64,000 bases of DNA from Ostrea edulis (Eukaryota): the NCBI RefSeq assembly GCF_947568905.1, contig NC_079164.1, positions 39,618,001-39,682,000 on the forward strand. Reading direction: 5' to 3'. The translations under genes and the position numbers were made by a program. Numbering within the stretch: the stretch's first letter is position 1; every line of letters begins with the position of its first letter. The notes under the pieces are model-generated. The model did no database searches, was not told where the DNA came from, and worked only from the letters and a program-made list of their open reading frames with translations. Shown here in pieces: positions 48,892-62,599 of this stretch.

Positions 48892-49390
48892 GTGACGGGA
48901 ATTCCATCGTTATCGAAAGCAAGTTTTTTAGACTTGCCTAGATGGTCGAGCGGTCTAGCGCGCTGGTTACATGCTGCTAGGAGATTTGGTTCCGTAGGTC
49001 GTGAGTTCAACCCCGGGTAGGGGCGGAAGTGGGTATCAAAGTAAAGTGAAATTTTCTGTGCTTTCTATTAAATATTTGTTCACTTAGGGCAGTTGCTATT
49101 TCTGTGCTTTATATAAAATATTTCGAATGCAATGTGTATCATGTATGATCCTCTTAAATGTACGTTAAACAACTGTATCCCATTTCCAATCTCAATGACC
49201 GTGTAGCGTGTGACAGCGTGACGAGAATCCATCGTCATCGAAAGCAAGTTTTTTTTAGACTTGCCTAGATGGTCGAGCGGTCTAGCGCGCTGGTTACATG
49301 CTGCTAGGAGATTTGGTTCCGTAGGTCGTGAGTTTAACCCCGGGTAGGGGCGGAAGTGGGTATTCAAATAAAGTGAAATTTTCTGTGCTT
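48892..49390 (+). repeat. Two tandem copies of a tRNA(Leu/Ser)-derived sequence
   Basis: A box TGGTCGAGCGG and B box GAGTT(C/T)AACCCC at 48936-49024 and 49263-49351; acceptor and anticodon stems pair poorly. Confidence 0.7.
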
Positions 49391-50684
49391 TATATATATA
49401 TATATATTTGAATATGTAAAAGATCATTCTTATTACAATTTATTTAACATGAAATTAGCATAAACAAAGTCATCATCGTAGGTGAAAATAATCATTAATG
49501 AAAGAACAGTGATCAATCTCATGACTCCTATAAAGAATACAAATGAAAGCGTTGGGCAAACACGACCTCTGGACACACCAGAGGTGGGATCAGGTGCCTA
49601 GGAGGAGTAAGTATCCCCTGTCGATCTCCCACACCCGCCGTGAGCCCCCTACAATTAATCATATATAAAGCTCATTCTTATTACAATATTCATTTAGCAT
49701 GAATTTAGCAGTAACAAGGTCATCATCGACAGTGAAAATAATCATTAATATATATCTGATACCATTATCTAAATTTTAAACTCTCTGCCTTTCAATGATG
49801 CAGTTTTATTCAATTAGCTGACAACAGAGTTGCCTCATGTTTACCGGTAAAGGAAGCCTATGCATTAGCGGGGGTGGAGGTTAACTATTTATCATTTTAC
49901 TTTTAAATGAACCATGATCTTTATGTGTGCTTTCATTCGTGTAGTATCTAAAGAGAGAATATTTTCGTTTCTGATTCCGGAATATATTACGTTCTTGAGC
50001 ATATGTAATGACAGACGATGTAAACAAAGACTTGTCAGATATAACCAGACACAGGGTAAAGTGAAAATCCACGATACATGTACCCCCTCCCCTGTATCCC
50101 GTTAATTTTCAATATTACAAAAGGTAAATTTGATATTCAAACTAAACCACCAATAAAACATAATATATAACGTTATGAATTTCATATGATAACATATATA
50201 CAATGTTAGTGCACATAAATTTAAAATGCTGGATATATGATATTCAAGAGAAGCCGTAGGCCGAGCAAACACGGGTTACATAAAGGCATTTTGAGCAAAG
50301 ATATTCGAGAATTTTTATCATACCTGTCATAAGTACACTATCCATATATTTGTTACGGAAAAAATTACTTTAATCATTGTATCCATCGAGAAAGTTGCAA
50401 ATAAAACACTTTATTTGGCTACAAATATTTTCATCGTTGATTTCGAGATCGTCAGCTAAGAGGAAATCACGGGATTTTTAATTATATGTATCATGGACGA
50501 TAAGAGTTATTCGCATTTTACCAGAAAGAAAAAAAATGTGTAGTTTGCAAACAGTACTCGCTGTTATTATCTTTTTCTCAATTAGTACCTTCGAGTGGCC
50601 AGAAGTCGTATCCGTTTAAAGAAACAGTAAAATAAAACATTATCTATTTTCAAATGGTATTTTAACTTGCATGAACAATGAAAA

Positions 50685-51240
50685 GGTGAATATAACGAAT
50701 AGTGATCAATCTCATAACTCCTATAAGCAATACAAATAGATAGTTGGACAAACATGGACCCCTGGACACACCAAAGGTGGGATCAGATGCCTAGGAGGAG
50801 AAAGCATCCCCTGTCGACCGGTCACACCCGCCGTGAGCCATATTTCCTGATCAGGTAAACGGAAGTATCCGTAGTCAAAATCAGTGTGCCAAGAACGGCC
50901 TAACAATCGGTATGAAACACGTCAGACAGCATATGGCCCAATGATAGGTTGTATTGACGAACTAGATCGTTATAACGACCATAGAATTTGCGAAATGTTG
51001 GCTTCAATCGAGACTGTTGAAATACCTGTACCATCAACTTGATTGTCAGTAGCTTTCCTCGATTTAAAAACTGACCATACGCAGAACACGCTCTTGCATA
51101 TCGAATCAGTTGAGAGATATAAACACCATATGCAGGTGATAGTGGAATATTGGTATATAAATATGGGAAGTTGAATATGGAGAAGCTGAAATCATTCCGT
51201 TTGTCATACAGTTGAGTTGTCAGTTTGCCGTTAATGTTAA
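50685..51240 (-). mobile_element. Penelope-like 3' fragment upstream of the NTPase pseudo-exon
   Basis: Colinear with 37420-37990 and 14400-14700. Confidence 0.8.
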
Positions 51241-51737
51241 AATCTTACTTTCTCTTTATTCAAAATATTTCAGAGCGATTTTGAGACACAAAACAAGTGA
51301 AGCTCAACGTCTGCCATATTTGTTTAGGAACAGTAGTGGTGCACCCGGATGTAGCAGTAAAATGAGGTCAAGGAGAACACATTTTATTGTTTGGTGACTT
51401 TTTATCACATTTGTTTTATGCATTATCACAATTTGTACATAGTCGATTATTTTGTCGCTAATTGTGCGCCATAACCTGTTTGAGAGAGTAACTATGTGCG
51501 CGTTTGAATTTATATTGTATTAATTGTCTTAAAAAATTAGGAGGATTGTCATTGTGTATCTGAAAAAAGTTTTAGAATTGCATTTTATCGTAATGCTAGA
51601 GGAATTAATATATTGGGCCTAGTTATCTAGCAAAGTAAACATTATCCCAAACACTTTCGTTTCTATTGAATTCCATTCTTCCAAATGTTACGTTAGATAA
51701 CAGAATCCATGTTGAAATGCATTATCTTTCGTCACAG

Positions 51738-52850
51738 AACGCCGCATACACGTGAATATTCATAAAAAGGATGGCAAAATCACTTTCATCTCTCATGTCG
51801 TGGTAAGTATTGGATTGCGAAGTAGTGGAAAGACTTCTCGCTGAACAAACTGTTATGTCTGCTTGTATTGTTTTTCTCAAGGAGGCAACCTTTTGGTACT
51901 TGAGGGACTTAAAAGAGTTAGACGGTGTAGATAGAGATAAGAACACTTTCCTTTTGCTGGATAACTGTATCAAAAGCTTGTTCAATAAAACCATTATTGA
52001 TGATTTGGTTCAAAAACTCAAAAAAGCAGTAAACACTGGAAAGGGAAATGCATATGTATTGATTTGTGTTCCAGACACTGTGTTAAAAATGTCTCAGAGT
52101 TCCTAATTAAGAGTTCATTGACATCTAAAATTTATGATATAAGCTCTAGCGAAGAATGGTGCCCCAAAGAAGACTGGGAAGCAATATTCGACAGCCATAT
52201 GCAAAGTAGAGAGGAATGGATCGAGAATCAAAACTGCCAGCAAAAACCATCGATAAATACAGAGATGATTACATTAAATGCAAAGCTGGAAATAGAGGAA
52301 AAGCGACAATATCATCTGTCCTCTTTGAAAACGGGTGTTATTTAAAGAGTGCTGTCACATTTCTCAAGAACTCATATGACTTAATGTCGAAGAGAATCAC
52401 GGATTTATTTGATTCGGGATGCAGTTCTGATGTTCGCCATTTTGTTGTTCTCGTACTTCTCATGTTACACAATGGAAAAGCAAACATTGAAGATAAAAAC
52501 AAAGATATGGTCCCTGAAATATGTCAAGTTTTCAAAGTGGAGAATTTCCCATTATTTCTAGACTTACAACATGAAAAACTGGAACAATGTCTCAATACGC
52601 TGCAGAAAAACAGTTCGTGTCACGTTTGATGTTGTTTGCAAGAAAAAAAGATCTGATCATCAAATACTGCGATTACGAATTGTTTTGGAACGCGTCTCTT
52701 TACATAGAGTGACAGAACGTGATCTCCTCGCAATAAACGAACGGTTTCAGTCGATGATATCATCTTGTACACTGTACGTAGGAAAACACAGTATCTTGGA
52801 AGAATTTCGATCGACATGTTCTACTTTTGATAAAGAAACGAGTTTTGACA
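51738..52850 (+). pseudogene. Decayed paralogous copy of the STAND-NTPase terminal exon
   Basis: Same acceptor context (gtcacag|AACGCCGCATACACGTGAAT). Homologous peptides are split over three ORFs (51810-52106, 52216-52629, 52571-52879). Walker A has degraded to GLRSSGKTSR* with several frameshifts. Confidence 0.85.
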
Positions 52851-53384
52851 CATATTTTGATAGCTTGTATTTTATATAGTTGTTCAGTCTGTGATCAAGA
52901 TTTGAGAGCGTTACGTATCGAATTTTCAAAATTTGTTTGTGATTATGGTATATAAACATCTTTTAGAGTGTATTTTCAAGTTCCTATAATTTACATGCAC
53001 GGCGGGTGTGACCGGTCAACAGGGGATGCTTACTCCTCCTAGGCACCTGATCCCACCTCTGGTGTGTCCAGGGGTCCGTGTTTGCCCAACTATCTAATTT
53101 GTATTGCTTGTAGGAGTTATGAGATTGATCACTGTTCGTTATCTCCACCTTGCATGAAAGTAAACGATGTATGCGCTGAACCACGAGTGTTTTCACTGTA
53201 TTTGCATGTTAGGTGGTTGAATCAACTACCAATGAGGTTGTATTATTAACTTGTCAGTTATGAAAAATTGTATCCCTAATTATGAATACGTTTTAGAACA
53301 GATGATATGCAATTAATAATATAGACATTGGAAGGACGTACGGAAAAAAATAAAATATCTTGCGAACTTAAAGAAAACAAACAA

Positions 53385-54324: not shown

Positions 54325-55540
54325 AATAATAATAATAAAAATACACTTACATAGCGCCTCATCTAAAAATACTCTAAAGCGCTGTACAACATACTAAAAT
54401 TTACAATTGATAATTAAAAGAAAAACCATAGAATACACAACGAATAATCCTTACACATATAAGCATGAATGCAACATTGTGTCATAATGGATAAAAAGTA
54501 CAAATCAAGACAATTTAAAGTATAAAATATGATGCAAGCATACAACGTCCTAAATATATGAAAAACAAACAAGTAAAACTACTCAAAAGAATCAAAACAC
54601 AAATGTGCCCAAAGTTCATTAAATTTAACAGTACATAGCTATTTAAAGGTTATAGGATTGACAGAAAAGATGAGTTTTTAACAGACGTTTAAAACACTCA
54701 AGATTTTTGGCGTTTCTGAGCTGGCAAGGCAGATTGTTCCAGAGTGTGGATGCAGCCTTGTCGAATCTGCGTTCACCGTAGGTCTTAGTTCTGATTGATG
54801 GTACAGTTAATAGATTTGCGGTTTCTGAACGCAGGGCTCTTGTCGGGTTGTTTGGAATAATGAGTTCCATTAGATATCCTGGAGCCAGGTTGTGGAGACT
54901 TTTAAACACATAAAGGAGAATTTTGTACTGGATACGATAATCAACGGGAAGCCAATGAAGATTGATCAGAACAGGTGTGGTATGATCGTGTTTTGTAGTC
55001 TGTGTAATTATCCTTCCAGCGGTGCTTTGAATTCGCTGGAGTTTGTTTGTGAATTATTTGTAGATTCCATACAATAAAGCGTTACCATAGTCCAGCCTCG
55101 ATGTAACGAGATAATTCACTAGAATTTTACAAGCATCATCAGTTATAAACGGTCGAATGCTGCCTATTCGACGTAGATGCATGTAACATGATCTTGCAAC
55201 GGAACTGCTTTGTTTTTCCATTGTAAGGGATTTGTCGAGATACATTCCGAGATTTTTCACACTTTCAGTATCACAAAGGATGTTTTCATCGAAAGTTATA
55301 TTGAAATTATTGTTATCGTATTTGGTTCGTTTTGGGACAAACACCATTAATTCTGTTTTGTCTTGATTTAGTTTTAGCAGGTTAGTACACATCCATTTAC
55401 GGATATCTGAGAGACACTGTATTAACCTATTCGAAACACCATCCCAGTTTTGACGCAGTTCGACTACAATATAGATCTGGCTGTCATCAGCATAGCAGTG
55501 ATAGTCCATGTCATGAAGATCACATATTTGTCCTATCGTT
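54325..55540 (-). mobile_element. CR1/L2(Crack)-type LINE 3' fragment
   Basis: YHCYADDSQIY, LKLNQDKTE, LVTSRLDYGNALL, RTKTYGERRF..WNNLP, with a (TTA)n tail. Inserted into a satellite monomer. Confidence 0.88.
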
Positions 55541-55660
55541 TCCATATATATTACCATATAAAATTTTGATCCCCTGTTGTGGCCCTATCCTACCCAGATA
55601 TTGTAATTTGAACAAACTTCAATCTGCAGTATCTGGAAATGGTTGCATATCAATGTGAGT

Positions 55661-56741: not shown

Positions 56742-56938
56742 ATGGCCTTGCTGTAATTGAGATTTTTTCTATATATTCCGATGTAAAACTTTGATCCCCA
56801 ATAGTTGGCTCACCCTATTCCCGGGGACCACAATTTAGAAATATTTGAAACTACACTACCTTGATGCTTGCTTATTAATATGAGTAATCATGACCCTGTC
56901 GTTCTTGAGAAGAATTTTAAAGATTTATGCTATATATA

Positions 56939-58019
56939 TGTAACACACAAGTTCTTTTCACCTTTTATTCACAGTTGTAGTGTAATGTAATCAATCAATG
57001 AATCAATGACAGTGCTCCTATAAATATAAATAAATAAAAACACATTATAATTTGTGCTAGTGACTTAACCAATGTACAAGATTTGCTTGACCTCAATCAT
57101 ATATACAAACATATTTCCTATGCAAGGATTCATATGTAGTACATGTATTATAAACATGCATAATTAGCAACATGAACAAATAGCAATTGCAAATTAGAAA
57201 AAGGTTGCGAATACGCAAAGTTCACAAACCTAAACAAGGCACACAATATCCGGCCCAACAAATGGTCACCACGACAGGTCAAGGTCAACGTAATACACTG
57301 ATCACCTACATGTAGACCTATTAATAAAATAAACACTGTAAATATACTGAAACACACATATAACTCGAACACCGTTGTGTCACCAAAGTACATGTATGTA
57401 AAACTCAATTATATTCTCCCATTAAGTATAAATAGAAAACATTAAGCTATAAACTAGTTCTCAATTCTATATGTCTGATTAAAGCAAATGCTAAATATTG
57501 AATTCCGCTTCCTAACAGCATTGTTTAGCAAAGAATCCCCTACAATACCTTACACACGATATAGTGAATCTATGCACTCAAAATATTCACTGACAAATTA
57601 TTGTGTACTTGAAAAGGACAAATATATCACCAAAAACTTACACAACATCAGACACATCTTCGTTGTTCTGTATCTCGTGCAAAAATACCGCCAATAGCAG
57701 GTTCTATTATTACACACACTGACCAATCACTGACCGTCTTCATAAGTGTGAAAAATATTACACGAAATTATTTTAACTCAACAAGAGATACTTTTACCTA
57801 AAATTAATAGAATATAATACTCTTCAAAGTCAATTATAATTAATTTTACAATAATAATCAGACACACAGAATACCAAAAATATCTACATAGTTGCAGTCT
57901 CAATGGCGCAGAGGTTAATGCCTACCGTCCATCACACGCGACCGCCTCTCGGCACCCGGTTCGAATCCCATCTGATACAACTTATTTTTTTTTAATATAA
58001 AAAATGTTCTCCCCTTACA
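56939..58019 (-). repeat. Gypsy 3' LTR
   Basis: TG...CA termini; purine-rich aaaaagttgggagat (minus strand) immediately upstream; direct repeat of 60900-61953. Confidence 0.92.
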
Positions 58020-58148
58020 AATCTCCCAACTTTTTATCATTGCTTACCACAGCAATGGCAAAATTTACTTCAACCTTAAAAATATGTCAACACTGACATC
58101 AAAATAAATCTAAAAATATATACAATATTTCTTTCTGCACAAGACACT

Positions 58149-60879
58149 CTAAACTATGTCTCTAATCTGACTTTGTTTAGTCCAAGAATCACTAAGGGTT
58201 GCGCTTAATGTAACACCAAGATTCACAATAGCATCACTAAGTTCCTTAAAGTTTGAATTCTGGACCGAAATCTGATTACAAGAGTTTGACGACACGACAC
58301 TTTGCGGTAATTTAAACGGATTGGAATGTTTTCCAGCCGTTGTTCGTTTACTCCGGCGCGGCTGTTCTGGTTCAACGAACTCTTCGTCTGATTTGCGATG
58401 ACTCGACGACTCCTCAGCCTGGATCACTTCTTGTATTTGTTCTGGAATGTAATCACTATCTGAATCCTCCGTCTCGGAATCTTCACTACTAGCGGTCACT
58501 TTTTCACCAGTGTCTAAAATTTCCTTCCTAGTGACATTTTTTATTGGACCAGATCCATCCGCGAGTTGAATAGAATACACATTATCACCAAGATATTTCA
58601 CAACTTTATACGGAGTGGAACACCACGTGTCTTGTATCTTGTTGCGTCCAAGAACTCTGTTCTTCGTTAGAACTCGGGTTCCTATCGGAATAAATGAATC
58701 TGTAGCCTTTTTGTTCCTCTGTTTGTTCCTTTGTTCAGCCGATTTCCTCAGTTAGCGGATGAACACTCGTAGACTTCACACATCCTCTTTTTGTGACTCT
58801 CTAACCAATCATCAAAGGATACAGGTACGTTAGCATCACTACTTGACGATTTCCTGGTTACAAGGAGGAAGTCCACCGGTAAGACAGGTTCTCGACCAAA
58901 GAACAAGAAATGTGGAGAGTATCCCGTAGATGAGTGCACTGTGGAGTTGGATATATAAACCAACTCTGGAAGATACTCCGGCCATCTCTGTTTTCTTTCA
59001 GGTGGTAACGTTTTTAAGCGATCATGCATGGTGTGATTGAATCGCTCACATTGTCCGTTACCTTCAGGGTGATAAGGCGTTGTGCGTGATTTTTCTATAT
59101 GATAAAAATTACACAGTTCTCGGACAACAGAACTTTCAAAGTTTCGTCCCTGGTCGCTATGTATACGTGCTGGAACGCCAAACTTGACAAACCAGTCTTT
59201 AACAAGGATTTTTGCCACATTTGTTGCTTTTTGATCCTTGCAAGCTACAGCTTGCGTAAATTTGGTAAATATGTCCGTCATAATTAACACGTTTTCACGT
59301 CCATCTGACGACCTTTCCAACACTGTGAAATCAATAGCGAGAATTTCTAAGGGTTTGTATGCCATAAGATTGCTGACTGGGGGGTTAATGGCAGGAAGGG
59401 GAGCCTTCCCTATCAAACATCTCTCACAGGACTTGCACCATTTTTGAACATCTTGTAGCATGCTTGGCCAGAAACATCTTTTCTTTAGCAATGAATATGT
59501 CTTTTCAATGCCTTGGTGTCCCGCATAATTGTGAACACTCTGTAGAACTTTTTGTTTTAGAACTTCCGGAAGCAAAAGCTGATTCTGTTCTCCTGTTTCA
59601 TCCTGAATTTTCCTAAATATCACAGAGTTCTCAGCAAATAGTCTGTCTCTTTGATTAAGTAGTTTCCTGACACTTTTGTGCTCCTGTTTCAAGTCAGAAA
59701 CTGACGGTTTTGTTCCTGAAGTGCCGCAATGTCTGTTGGGATAAATTCAGGTAATGTAGCTGTCGCACACACGGAACGCAACTGAACGTTAGCTGCTTCT
59801 TCACTAATATAGTTCACGCTTCCCTTTAACACCTCCAACGATGTACTCTGCGTAATCCTGTTTAGAGTATCCACAACACTTTCTATCTCCGATGAAATAG
59901 GTCGTCGACTCAGAGCATCCGCATTTCGATTGACCCTTCCAGAACGGTATTTCACCGAGAAGTTGAACTGAGCCAATTCTCCGATCCAGCGCATTGTAGT
60001 TGCGTCGACACGCTGCTTGGTTTTGTGGATATAACTTAACGGATTATTGTCAGTATACACAATAAATTTCGATCCAAGAAGGTAGTCCCGAAATTTTTCG
60101 CTAACTGACCACTTGAGTGCTAATAATTCCAGTTTCATAGAACTATATTTCTCCATGTTTTTCTCTGCTTTCCTGGGTGATCTTAATGCGTAGGCAATCA
60201 CTACTTTACCATTTGGTGTCTCTTGCGACAAAACGGCTCCAAGACCTTCAAGACTAGCGTCCGTCTCCAAGATGAATTCTCGAGTGAAATCAGGAAATCC
60301 CAACGCTGGTGCAGTCGTAAGTCTCTCTTTCAATGTTTCGAATGCCTGAGTACACTCTTCAGTCCACAGTGCTTGAAATTGTTCGGATTTCAGTTTGGTG
60401 TTTTTCGGTTTAGACAATAAAGAATGGAGAGGAGATGCGATACTGGCAAATCCCTGTACAAACTTACGATAATAACTAGCCAGTCCAAGGAGTGAACGTA
60501 GTTGTTTTTCGGTGACTGGAATGGGCCATGATCGGATTACTGCTGTTTTATCTGGGTCGGTTGCAACACCGTTCTCGGACACAATGTGTCCTAAGAACCT
60601 AACCTCCTTCTGGAAGAAATGACACTTTGACATTTTCACTTTAAGTCCATGTAACTTAAGTTTGGTAAACACTTTGTCCAGTCTAAGAATGTGTTCTTCT
60701 ATAGTCCGTGAAAATACCAAAATGTCATCTAAATACAGAACAAGAATATCGAAGTTTTCATCACCGAGACACACTTCCATCAGTCTTTGGAACGTTGCCG
60801 GACTGTTACACAAACCGAACGGCATTCTCACATACTCAAACAGTCCTCCAGTTCCTACTCGGAATGCGGTCTTTAGAAT
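58149..60879 (-). pseudogene. pol: Gypsy pol remnant (partial RT, RNase H, integrase)
   Basis: ORFs 59689-60909, 58748-59692 and 58149-58601 are consecutive pieces of one polyprotein, separated by frameshifts near 59700 and 58750. Confidence 0.92.
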
Positions 60880-60897
60880 ATCCTGTCCACGACGCCA
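60880..60897 (-). promoter_or_regulatory. Primer-binding site, probably tRNA-Ser
   Basis: TGGCGTCGTGGACAGGAT, 2 nt inside the LTR. Its complement ATCCTGTCCACGACG-CCA resembles the 3' end of a metazoan tRNA-Ser. Confidence 0.75.
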
Positions 60898-60899
60898 TT

Positions 60900-61953
60900 T
60901 GTAACACACAAGTTCTTTTCACCTTTTATTCACAGTTGTAGTGTAATGTAATCAATCAATGAATCAATGACAGTGCTCCTATAAATATAAATAAATAAAA
61001 ACACATTATAATTTGTGCTAGTAACTTAACCAATGTACAAGATTTGGTTGACCTCAATCATATATACAAACATATTTCCTATGCAAGGATTCATATGTAG
61101 TACATGTATTATAAACATGCATAATTAGCAACATGAACAAATAGCAATTGCAAATTAGAAAAAGGTTGCGAATACGCAAAGTTCACAAACCTAAACAAGG
61201 CACACAATATCCGGCCCAAAAAATGATCACCACGACAGGTCAAGGTCAACGTAATACACTGATCACCTACATGTAGACCTATTAATAAAATAAACACTGT
61301 AAATACACTGAAACACACATATAACTCGAACACCGTTGTGTCACCAAAGTACATGTATGTAAAACTCAATTATATTCTCCCATTAAGTATAAATAGAAAC
61401 CATTAAGCTATAAACTAGTTCTCAGTTCTATATGTCTGATTAAAGCAAATGCTAAATATTGAATTCCGCTTCCTAACAGCATTGTTTAGCAAAGAATCTC
61501 CTACAATACCTTACATAGGATATAGTGAATCTATGCACTCAAAAAGGACAAATATATCACCAAAAACTTACACAACATCAGACACATCTTCGTTGTTCTG
61601 TATCTCGTGCAAAAATACCGCCAATAGCAGGTTCTATTATTACACACACTGATCAATCACTGACCGTCTTCATAAGTGTGAAAAATATTACACGAAATTA
61701 TTTTAACTCAACAAGAGATACTTTTACCCAAAATTAATAGAATATAATACTCTTCAAAGTCAATTATAATTAATTTTGCAATAATAATCAGACACACAGA
61801 ATACCAAAAATATCTACATAGTTGCAGAGTCTCAATGGCGCAGAGGTTAATGTCTACCGTCCATCATACGCGACCGACTCTCGGCACCCGGTTCGAATCC
61901 CATGTGATACAACTTATTTTTTTTTTTAATATAAAAAATGTTCTCCCCTTATA
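60900..61953 (-). repeat. Gypsy 5' LTR
   Basis: Direct repeat of 56939-58019 with a ~29-bp indel and roughly 15-20 substitutions by eye. The 5' terminus has mutated to TA. Confidence 0.92.
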
Positions 61954-62599
61954 TATACATGTACTCATGTATAACGTTGATCATCTATTGTTGCCCCATC
62001 CTACTCCTGGAAGTCATGATTTTAACACACTTCAATCTACACTATGTTAGGAAGCTTTCATCTCAGTTTCAACTTTTCTGGCCCAGCGGTTCTTGATAAG
62101 AATATTTTTAAATGACCATATTCTATTTTTGCATTTTCCTGATTACTCTTGATAACATACCCTATGCACAGAGCACGACCCTTCATTTGTACATATATTA
62201 ATTCCCGTTACCCAAGGTTGGTTTGTGTCAAGTTTGTTTGAAATTGACCCAGTGGTTCTTGAGAAGAGTTTTAAACGATGCCAACATTTTTGCTAATGTG
62301 ACCACATTCATAAATGTTGTGCAGTATTTTATGGGTTTTAAGACAATCTTTTAAGTAAATCTTGAATTCAATATTTTAACGAAATGAAAATGCAAATATT
62401 GTACATTGTTTTATGTTTATGTTGTAACAAGAAAAAGTTACAATATAAAGTTCCTTCCCTTTTCTGCATGTAATCACAGGGTCGCGCATATATACACATA
62501 TAGTGTAATTGAATGATGAAATATAGTTAATAAGATTAAATCAGAGCTATGGAGATAATGCTAGAATGTTGGATATTCCAAATTTAATATCTAGATAGC

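Follow-up and report, generated by a model that had tools for sequence, protein, structure and literature searches.

The closest described system is Helenus (TRIMp3), which comprises short non-coding elements with tRNA-derived A and B boxes in their LTRs, with 51 families in bivalves (PMC10886601). The Helenus cassette has been proposed to transcribe the element, and its boxes are conserved, while the tRNA fold is not (PMC10886601). In the Helenus supplement, B-box words numbered 44 in the sense orientation and 0 in the antisense orientation (PMC10886601). Kojima (2024) remarked on tRNA-like pieces in Repbase LTRs and analysed short elements alone (PMC10886601). Cassandra and Ajax TRIMs have another small-RNA-gene promoter in their LTRs (PMC10886601).

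In this study, a Gypsy element with a tRNA-derived Pol III cassette in its LTRs was investigated in a 64,000-nucleotide stretch of Ostrea edulis DNA (the window). The element was consistent with Helenus in carrying A and B boxes in both LTRs, in the lost fold, in the 4-bp TSD, and in that the cassette was not a self-primer (PMC10886601). Helenus elements are 311–1263 bp long and non-coding (PMC10886601), whereas the cassette occurs in gag-pol elements of 7.5 kb whose LTRs measure 1.08 kb. The Helenus promoter is in the sense orientation (PMC10886601), whereas the cassette runs antisense and ends in a T-run of its own. Like the Cassandra and Ajax TRIMs, the element has the promoter of a small-RNA gene in its LTRs; the TRIMs differ in that their promoter is of type 1 and derived from 5S, that they are non-autonomous, and that Cassandra is transcribed from LTR to LTR (PMC10886601). 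The sequence-only reading had compared the cassette with Cassandra. The analogy held for the presence of a Pol III promoter in the LTRs, but here the promoter is antisense, terminated, and faces away from the element. A tRNA-derived promoter in an animal LTR was already known from Helenus; the antisense, terminated form in a protein-coding clade differs from it. The explanation given for Helenus, a promoter for the own RNA of tiny non-coding elements, cannot apply to the cassette. No description of an antisense, terminated tRNA-like unit in autonomous Gypsy LTRs was found in the literature, with Repbase entries and subscription journals lying outside the search.

The coordinates of the element and of its cassettes are given in Table 1. 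Pfam identified RT, RNase H, and integrase in the Gypsy order on the minus strand. This order between the LTRs, together with the PBS, the PPT, and the TSD, is that of Ty3/Gypsy elements. About 2.4 kb was missing from the window copy directly after the PBS, including gag, protease, and the N-terminal part of RT. The 5' LTR differed from the 3' LTR by 17 mismatches and 3 gaps. The window element belongs to a young, protein-coding Gypsy family, named family A here, and carries an internal deletion.

Table 1. Features of the Gypsy element and its Pol III cassettes in the window (positions are those of the window).
Feature	Position	Strand	Remark
3' LTR of Gypsy element, 1081 bp	56939..58019	-	U3 start at 58019; TG..CA ends, adjoining PPT
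5' LTR	60900..61953	-	direct repeat; outer CA changed to TA
Left TSD, TATA	56935..56938	.	
Right TSD, TATA	61954..61957	.	
PBS, complementary to tRNA-Ser(CGA) 3' end plus CCA	60880..60897	-	tRNA gene in same genome (L261)
Polypurine tract (PPT)	58020..58035	-	abuts 58019
pol remnant	58149..60879	-	C-terminal RT, RNase H, integrase; three frames
AATAAA, likely polyadenylation signal	56964..56969	-	sole one on LTR sense strand
tRNA-derived type-2 Pol III cassette in 3' LTR	57897..57993	+	
A box TGGCGCAGAGG	57904..57914	+	
B box GGTTCGAATCC	57958..57968	+	
T9 run, predicted Pol III terminator	57985..57993	+	A run in element's own RNA
Cassette in 5' LTR	61829..61927	+	A box 61836-61846, B box 61890-61900, T11 61917-61927

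RNA contigs from four runs of one study spanned 56932–57123 and 57985–58267 without covering the cassette, and the contig gap is uninformative. In three of the four runs, contigs ended at 56954–56964, a weak indication for the polyadenylation signal from contigs without strand. A second copy of the element (L035, G000:C1:39736500-39746300) was found about 62 kb downstream, interrupted by another element with RT-like frames. It is a segmental duplicate or an assembly duplicate, because its right flank is identical to that of the window insertion. In the window, long inverted repeats (arms of 55 and 102 nt) were also observed at 50683–53151; the roughly 2.2 kb between them contains short ORFs, and the whole may be a DNA transposon. 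A fragment of LINE RT was found at 54643–55584.

The cassette of the 3' LTR consisted of the leader GTCTCAA (57897–57903), the A box, a 43-nt spacer, the B box, 16 nt, and T9, in this order. It has the structure of a type-2 Pol III unit, with A and B boxes at tRNA-gene spacing and then a T-run. The cassettes of the two LTRs differed by 4 substitutions in the first 83 nt, none of which fell within the boxes. Because of the placement of the PBS and the PPT, the element is on the minus strand and the cassette is antisense to it, 26–123 nt inside the U3 start. The boxes and the T9 and T11 runs reported by the sequence-only reading were confirmed in both copies by direct reading, and the PBS and PPT also confirmed that the cassette is opposite to the pol strand and near the U3 start in both LTRs. 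The pattern of A box, spacer, B box, and T6 was searched in the 895-Mb genome. It gave 122 overlapping matches and the reversed control gave 0, so the cassette pattern is not due to chance.

The A–B spacing was 43 nt in family A and 40–41 nt in the B-like lineages described below; that of native Leu and Ser tRNA genes was 41–44 nt. The T-run came shortly after the B box in the cassettes, as in the native Leu and Ser tRNA genes. Among 15 tRNA-type genes, the family A cassette was closest to tRNA-Leu(CAG), with 58/83 positions identical, and the B-like cassettes ended like tRNA-Leu(AAG/TAG). These comparisons indicate that the cassette is derived from a long-arm tRNA, the closest being tRNA-Leu. 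Departures from the primer tRNA fell at the free positions of the A-box consensus, as generally known and partly given in PMC10886601.

The tRNA fold was not retained. ARAGORN found one gene in the window, located elsewhere, and Rfam gave no tRNA match to the cassette at E ≤ 5. The native controls L261 and L272 scored 66 and 56 bits with the tRNA model, and the family B and relic loci gave no score. The family A cassette kept 5/7 acceptor pairs and 2/5 T-stem pairs, and the six B-like lineages kept 1–4/7 and 2–3/5; native tRNA genes had 7/7 and 5/5 (8/8). The stems were broken in 7/7 lineages scored. Folding was no better than that of shuffles on both strands (z 0.2–1.9, and −2.1 to 1.8 over 16 folds). 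The cassette had been called tRNA-like from its sequence, with tRNA models proposed as a check. It is tRNA-derived with intact boxes, but its stems are broken and neither ARAGORN nor Rfam detected it. Selection appears to have acted on the boxes and not on the RNA fold, because the boxes are kept, the stems are broken, and there is no hairpin.

A and B boxes at tRNA-gene spacing could point to a functional tRNA, a self-primer, or a promoter of genomic RNA as in Helenus, which is itself present in the genome (L067). These functions, and that of a mark of Pol III-directed integration, are all very improbable. A functional tRNA was rejected on the absent cloverleaf, the broken stems, and the negative results of ARAGORN and Rfam. 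A self-primer was rejected because the 3' end of the cassette is not complementary to the PBS. A Helenus-type promoter was rejected because the cassette faces outward and ends after about 90 nt; being outward-facing and terminated by a T-run, it cannot transcribe the element in the way proposed for Helenus. Integration near Pol III genes was rejected with A and B boxes in 2/63 flanks versus 5/140 background windows.

A captured SINE head had also been proposed from the sequence. The family A interior did resemble one common SINE head (z 3.4–4.8, the best of several comparisons, with 1779 candidate SINE places). That SINE runs from the head into a body, whereas the cassette head goes straight to the T-run. 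A SINE head is less likely because the T-run is at tRNA-gene spacing and no SINE body follows; an origin from a tRNA gene, or from a pre-tRNA with its trailer, fits better. An ARAGORN "tRNA-???" at 14290–14361 (minus strand) of the window is a tRNA-derived SINE head, which was also observed in several fetched loci. Other tRNA-like A/B-box heads, some followed by a T-run, occur in unrelated repeats at about 48930–49040 (plus strand) of the window and in L086, L092, and L109.

The distribution of the cassette in family A was investigated across genomic copies. Full-length members are about 7.5 kb long with 1.08-kb LTRs and have stop-to-stop frames of 368 aa for gag and 1383 aa for pol. There were 16 integrase matches at 95–100% identity, 8 of them within open frames of 1383–1386 aa. 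LTR pairs were 96.6–100% identical in 7/8 family A elements fetched, and the eighth was interrupted. The results indicated that family A is young and protein-coding. A total of 54 family A LTRs were examined, of which 47 were retrieved independently of the cassette, either with a U3 query that lacked it or from pol matches. In the U3 query, 40 of 94 candidates were scored and 30 taken; the sample leans to young copies.

Both boxes were present in 46/47 of the LTRs found without the cassette, and both were exact and followed by the T-run in 42/47. The remaining five had a changed A box (1), a changed B box (2), a cut before the T-run (1), or a cut before the B box (1). The T-run was found in 45/47. 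The cassette was thus copied with the LTR, as claimed from the sequence, since 46/47 cassette-independently found LTRs have both boxes. The top 30 matches of a cassette query were all in LTRs, with none outside. Among the 100 pattern matches listed of the 122, all were family A, family B, or relic L152, except one tRNA-Pro-like gene, and five further pattern places that were fetched were all in LTRs (5/5). The cassette is part of the LTR. The sequence-only reading had named two structural observations that would refute its interpretation. Absence from most family LTRs was not found, as the cassette was in nearly all family LTRs examined; a dispersed SINE fragment was likewise not found, as no cassette was outside LTRs among the places examined. 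A dispersed SINE was rejected on this result and on the T-run directly after the head.

Within family A, 0/22 box sites had shared variants compared with 28/914 in the rest of the LTR (p = 1). The boxes had 0/22 variable sites and the cassette interior 7/43 (p = 0.085). The boxes were present in nearly all these LTRs (46/47); within family A they were not measurably more constrained than the rest of the LTR. Four further runs (organisms A and B, 3 studies) had the same family and cassette with almost no box changes among those listed; these runs add no divergence to the conservation comparison.

From related Gypsy families, 40 loci were fetched, and a repeat pair was found in 32. Besides L039 and L067, 24 of the related LTRs included the U3 start, and A box, B box, and T-run together were found in 0/24 of these other-family LTRs. 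The nearest family, family B (L039), has a pol 57% identical to that of family A over 964 aa. Its LTR contains an antisense A box, B box, and T-run of its own, with the strand and the LTR end matching those of family A. The primer of family B is tRNA-Leu AAG/TAG and that of family A is tRNA-Ser(CGA). The B box is 87 nt from the LTR start in family B versus 60–74 nt in family A.

Between the two families, the B box was identical at 11/11 positions and the A box at 7/11. In blastn of the family A LTR against the family B LTR, the sole match with E < 0.8 was the B box plus T-run (39 nt, E 1.3e-4); the others had E ≥ 0.83. A profile of seven B-like LTR starts met the family A LTR at the cassette only (5.5 bits, E 0.023). 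The boxes and the terminator persist between families whose LTRs no longer align. This comparison of A and B gives a strong signal of conservation, and the other tests are modest or null. Both boxes exact plus the T-run were found in 12/20 family B LTR starts and the T-run in 19/20, with a query that included the cassette; 2/22 rows of this set had been excluded as an unrelated tRNA-like repeat (L086).

Family B LTRs had two lengths, 526 bp in L039 (1422–1947) and about 1.15 kb in L081-L085 and L111. The longer form has about 650 bp extra near the U5 end, and the cassette is in both forms. Inverted pairs of family B LTR starts close together were observed in L093 and L099. A C-rich triplet directly before the B box (window 57955–57957 and equivalents) recurred in A, B, and the relics; it matches neither the primer tRNA nor a paired T stem.

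Six relic LTRs, 57–76% identical mutually and to B, carried the cassette at the same place. In the seven B-like LTR starts, column identity was 0.83 for the A box, 0.87 for the B box, 0.67 for the interior, and 0.69 upstream. Among the upstream 11-nt windows, 39/257 were as conserved as the A box and 17/257 as the B box. Damaged boxes were found in relics L105, L126, and L153, which is expected because relics decay after insertion. In a tree of RNase H and integrase (36 rows, quick search), A, B, and relic L152 were on one side of a branch with SH-aLRT 98. Relic L152 is short and long-branched; loci with fewer than 250 covered residues were to be excluded, and none of the 36 were. A single capture in the ancestor of the clade would be the simplest reading. 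There may also have been two captures at the same spot, because the interiors of A and B are not alike beyond shuffles (z about 0; A versus five relics, z −0.2 to 1.8).

All comparative evidence came from one genome. Proteins 59–68% identical occur in public assemblies. No relatives were found in protein-guided scans of metagenome contigs and viral contigs. The pattern of B box, T-run, and LTR end gave 0 viral matches and 30 metagenome matches; 0/30 were near pol, and nearly all 30 were ordinary tRNA genes.

The cassette might be a neutral passenger, that is, one (or two) captured pieces of a tRNA gene or SINE head whose boxes look conserved through consensus donors and young families. Such a history is unlikely, although several results are consistent with it. 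The within-family tests were not significant, the interior in family A is similar to the head of a common SINE, and tRNA-like A/B-box heads occur in several other repeats of the genome. The damaged boxes of L105, L126, and L153 and the riding of an A-box-less fragment in a high-copy repeat also agree with it, and "not a few LTRs" in Repbase contain tRNA-like pieces (PMC10886601). Against a neutral passenger, the boxes are exact although identity to the closest tRNA is down to 58/83 and the stems are disrupted; the B box is 11/11 identical between families whose LTRs do not align; and the end, strand, and spacing of the cassette are the same across 8 lineages. Taken together, the cassette is a real, clade-specific feature, with fair evidence from one genome for selection on its boxes, and we infer that the boxes are selected as a promoter. 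The high-copy repeat mentioned above (L127-L139, about 1380–1650) holds a decayed piece of a B-like LTR start, in which the T-run and a remnant of the B box are left but the A box is missing. It is >3 kb long, with copies 98–99% identical in >30 places.

On the sense strand of the element, the cassette is the complement of the tRNA D and T-psi-C arms. In the genomic RNA, it could serve as a Ty3-like 3' PBS half that assists in priming or in the first strand transfer, like those of Ty3 and Drosophila gypsy; this option had not been raised by the sequence-only reading. Such a site would predict conservation of the same blocks. A tRNA-Lys3-like tract is found in U3-R of HIV-1. With Ty3 (PMC5371799) and Drosophila gypsy (PMC1635307), the cassette has in common this complementarity of a U3 sense strand to both tRNA arms. 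In orientation and in location within U3, it corresponds to the Ty3 3' PBS, whose pairing partners are these two arms (PMC5371799), and Drosophila gypsy also has a second, 3' PBS (PMC1635307). In the A and B LTRs, the cassette was the best window for a primer duplex, with −46 to −57 kcal/mol compared with −27 to −41 kcal/mol in 19 outgroup LTRs; such duplex energy, however, follows from tRNA ancestry alone. For family B, the best pairing was with the primer type of the family itself, tRNA-Leu AAG/TAG (top 3 of 15), and relic L153 shares the family B PBS. The family A cassette, however, fits tRNA-Leu(CAG) better than its tRNA-Ser(CGA) primer (58 versus 50 identities; −65 versus −50 kcal/mol).

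Other details also spoke against a 3' PBS half. The longest unbroken pairing with the free part of the primer was outside the cassette, with 11 nt in A and 9 nt in B, and outgroup LTRs had runs at least as long. Within the T stem, the 5' strand, which is free after priming, was unmatched, the mismatches were at promoter-tolerant positions, and the T-run is left unexplained. Unlike in Ty3, the 5' PBS of the cassette elements is already complete (18–20 nt), no long stretch pairs perfectly, and the terminator is retained (PMC5371799). A role in priming is accordingly rated as quite improbable.

The cassette is a complete unit from promoter to terminator, with the T-run in 45/47 family A and 19/20 family B LTRs, while a pure TFIIIC site would need the B box only. 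The functional product might then be an antisense RNA of about 90 nt to U3, dampening or tuning the element by double-stranded RNA, by endo-siRNA or piRNA seeding, or by interference near the PPT. Regardless of its interior sequence, such an RNA would pair along its full length with its own U3, in keeping with the rapid change of the interior (7/43 sites variable). Foamy viruses also have Pol III units in U3 (PMC3993851), and the cassette is like them in being a self-contained unit of A box, B box, and terminator in U3 of an autonomous LTR element (PMC3993851). The foamy virus units make stem-loop pri-miRNAs, detected by Northern blot and sequencing, whereas the cassette is hairpin-less and visibly tRNA-derived (PMC3993851). 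A miRNA-like hairpin was rejected with no fold above shuffles; because there is no hairpin, the cassette is not a miRNA of the foamy virus type. The missing hairpin also weakens the case for a functional antisense RNA, as does a complementarity to the rest of the element of ≤10 nt. The terminator would also be needed if Pol III must run for barrier activity. A functional antisense RNA is on balance an improbable product of the cassette.

The best explanation, tentatively, is that Pol III and TFIIIC would use the cassette as a boundary site at the edge of the LTR. A TFIIIC insulator was among the options of the sequence-only reading, as was an antisense RNA. The decayed tRNA gene, which lies backwards at the U3 start in one Gypsy clade, has kept its A box, B box, and T-run and lost its fold. 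TFIIIC, TFIIIB, and Pol III would assemble on the cassette at the outer LTR edge and act at the DNA level. The assembled complex would shield the element promoter from flanking silent chromatin or incoming transcription, and any cassette transcript of about 90 nt would likely be a by-product. In the 5' LTR, the cassette separates host DNA from the remainder of the LTR, a position that would suit a boundary.

This action would be consistent with known Pol III boundaries. tDNA barriers require TFIIIC and Pol III and are orientation-independent (PMC2040200), and TFIIIC sites block Pol II read-through in yeast (PMC4228148). The cassette shares A/B-box DNA with tDNA/TFIIIC barriers and B2 SINE boundaries, in which such DNA acts through bound Pol III factors in either orientation (PMC2040200, PMC4228148, PMC8136502). 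B2 SINE boundaries are mobile and tDNA barriers are host loci, whereas the putative cassette barrier would be an integral part of the LTR and serve the element itself (PMC8136502). Several points weigh against a boundary. In the 3' LTR, Pol II would have to pass the cassette to reach the sole AATAAA, and a bound complex could be a costly roadblock, judging from yeast (PMC4228148). Other Gypsy families in the genome are active without a cassette (LTR pairs up to 100% identical). The constraint on the boxes within family A was not measurably above that on the rest of the LTR, and among B-like lineages 39 and 17 of 257 upstream windows equalled the A and B boxes in conservation.

More broadly, it is possible, if somewhat doubtful, that a tRNA gene was domesticated by a protein-coding Gypsy clade, in which it would be an integral Pol III boundary or a unit for antisense RNA, kept by selection through LTR turnover and a primer switch. 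If the cassette is functional, autonomous LTR elements would use the Pol III machinery to shield their promoter or to limit themselves by antisense RNA. Each insertion would then place a TFIIIC site in the host genome, and under a boundary function, the element would carry its own tDNA insulator to every insertion site. The young family and its cassette-free sister families are natural controls.

A chimera between TATA duplications was observed at L067:944-9518 (G000:C2:20314379-20324378). It begins with a Helenus-type 142-bp LTR with sense boxes, followed by a PBS and a Gypsy internal region with gag and pol. It continues with the Gypsy's own LTR of about 490 bp, the same PBS, a short internal part with a PPT, and a Helenus-type LTR. 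An autonomous element with Helenus LTRs was rejected for L067, as it is a chimera with the Gypsy's own LTR. The arrangement looks like a template switch at the shared PBS, which, if correct, would name the autonomous partner of this TRIM.
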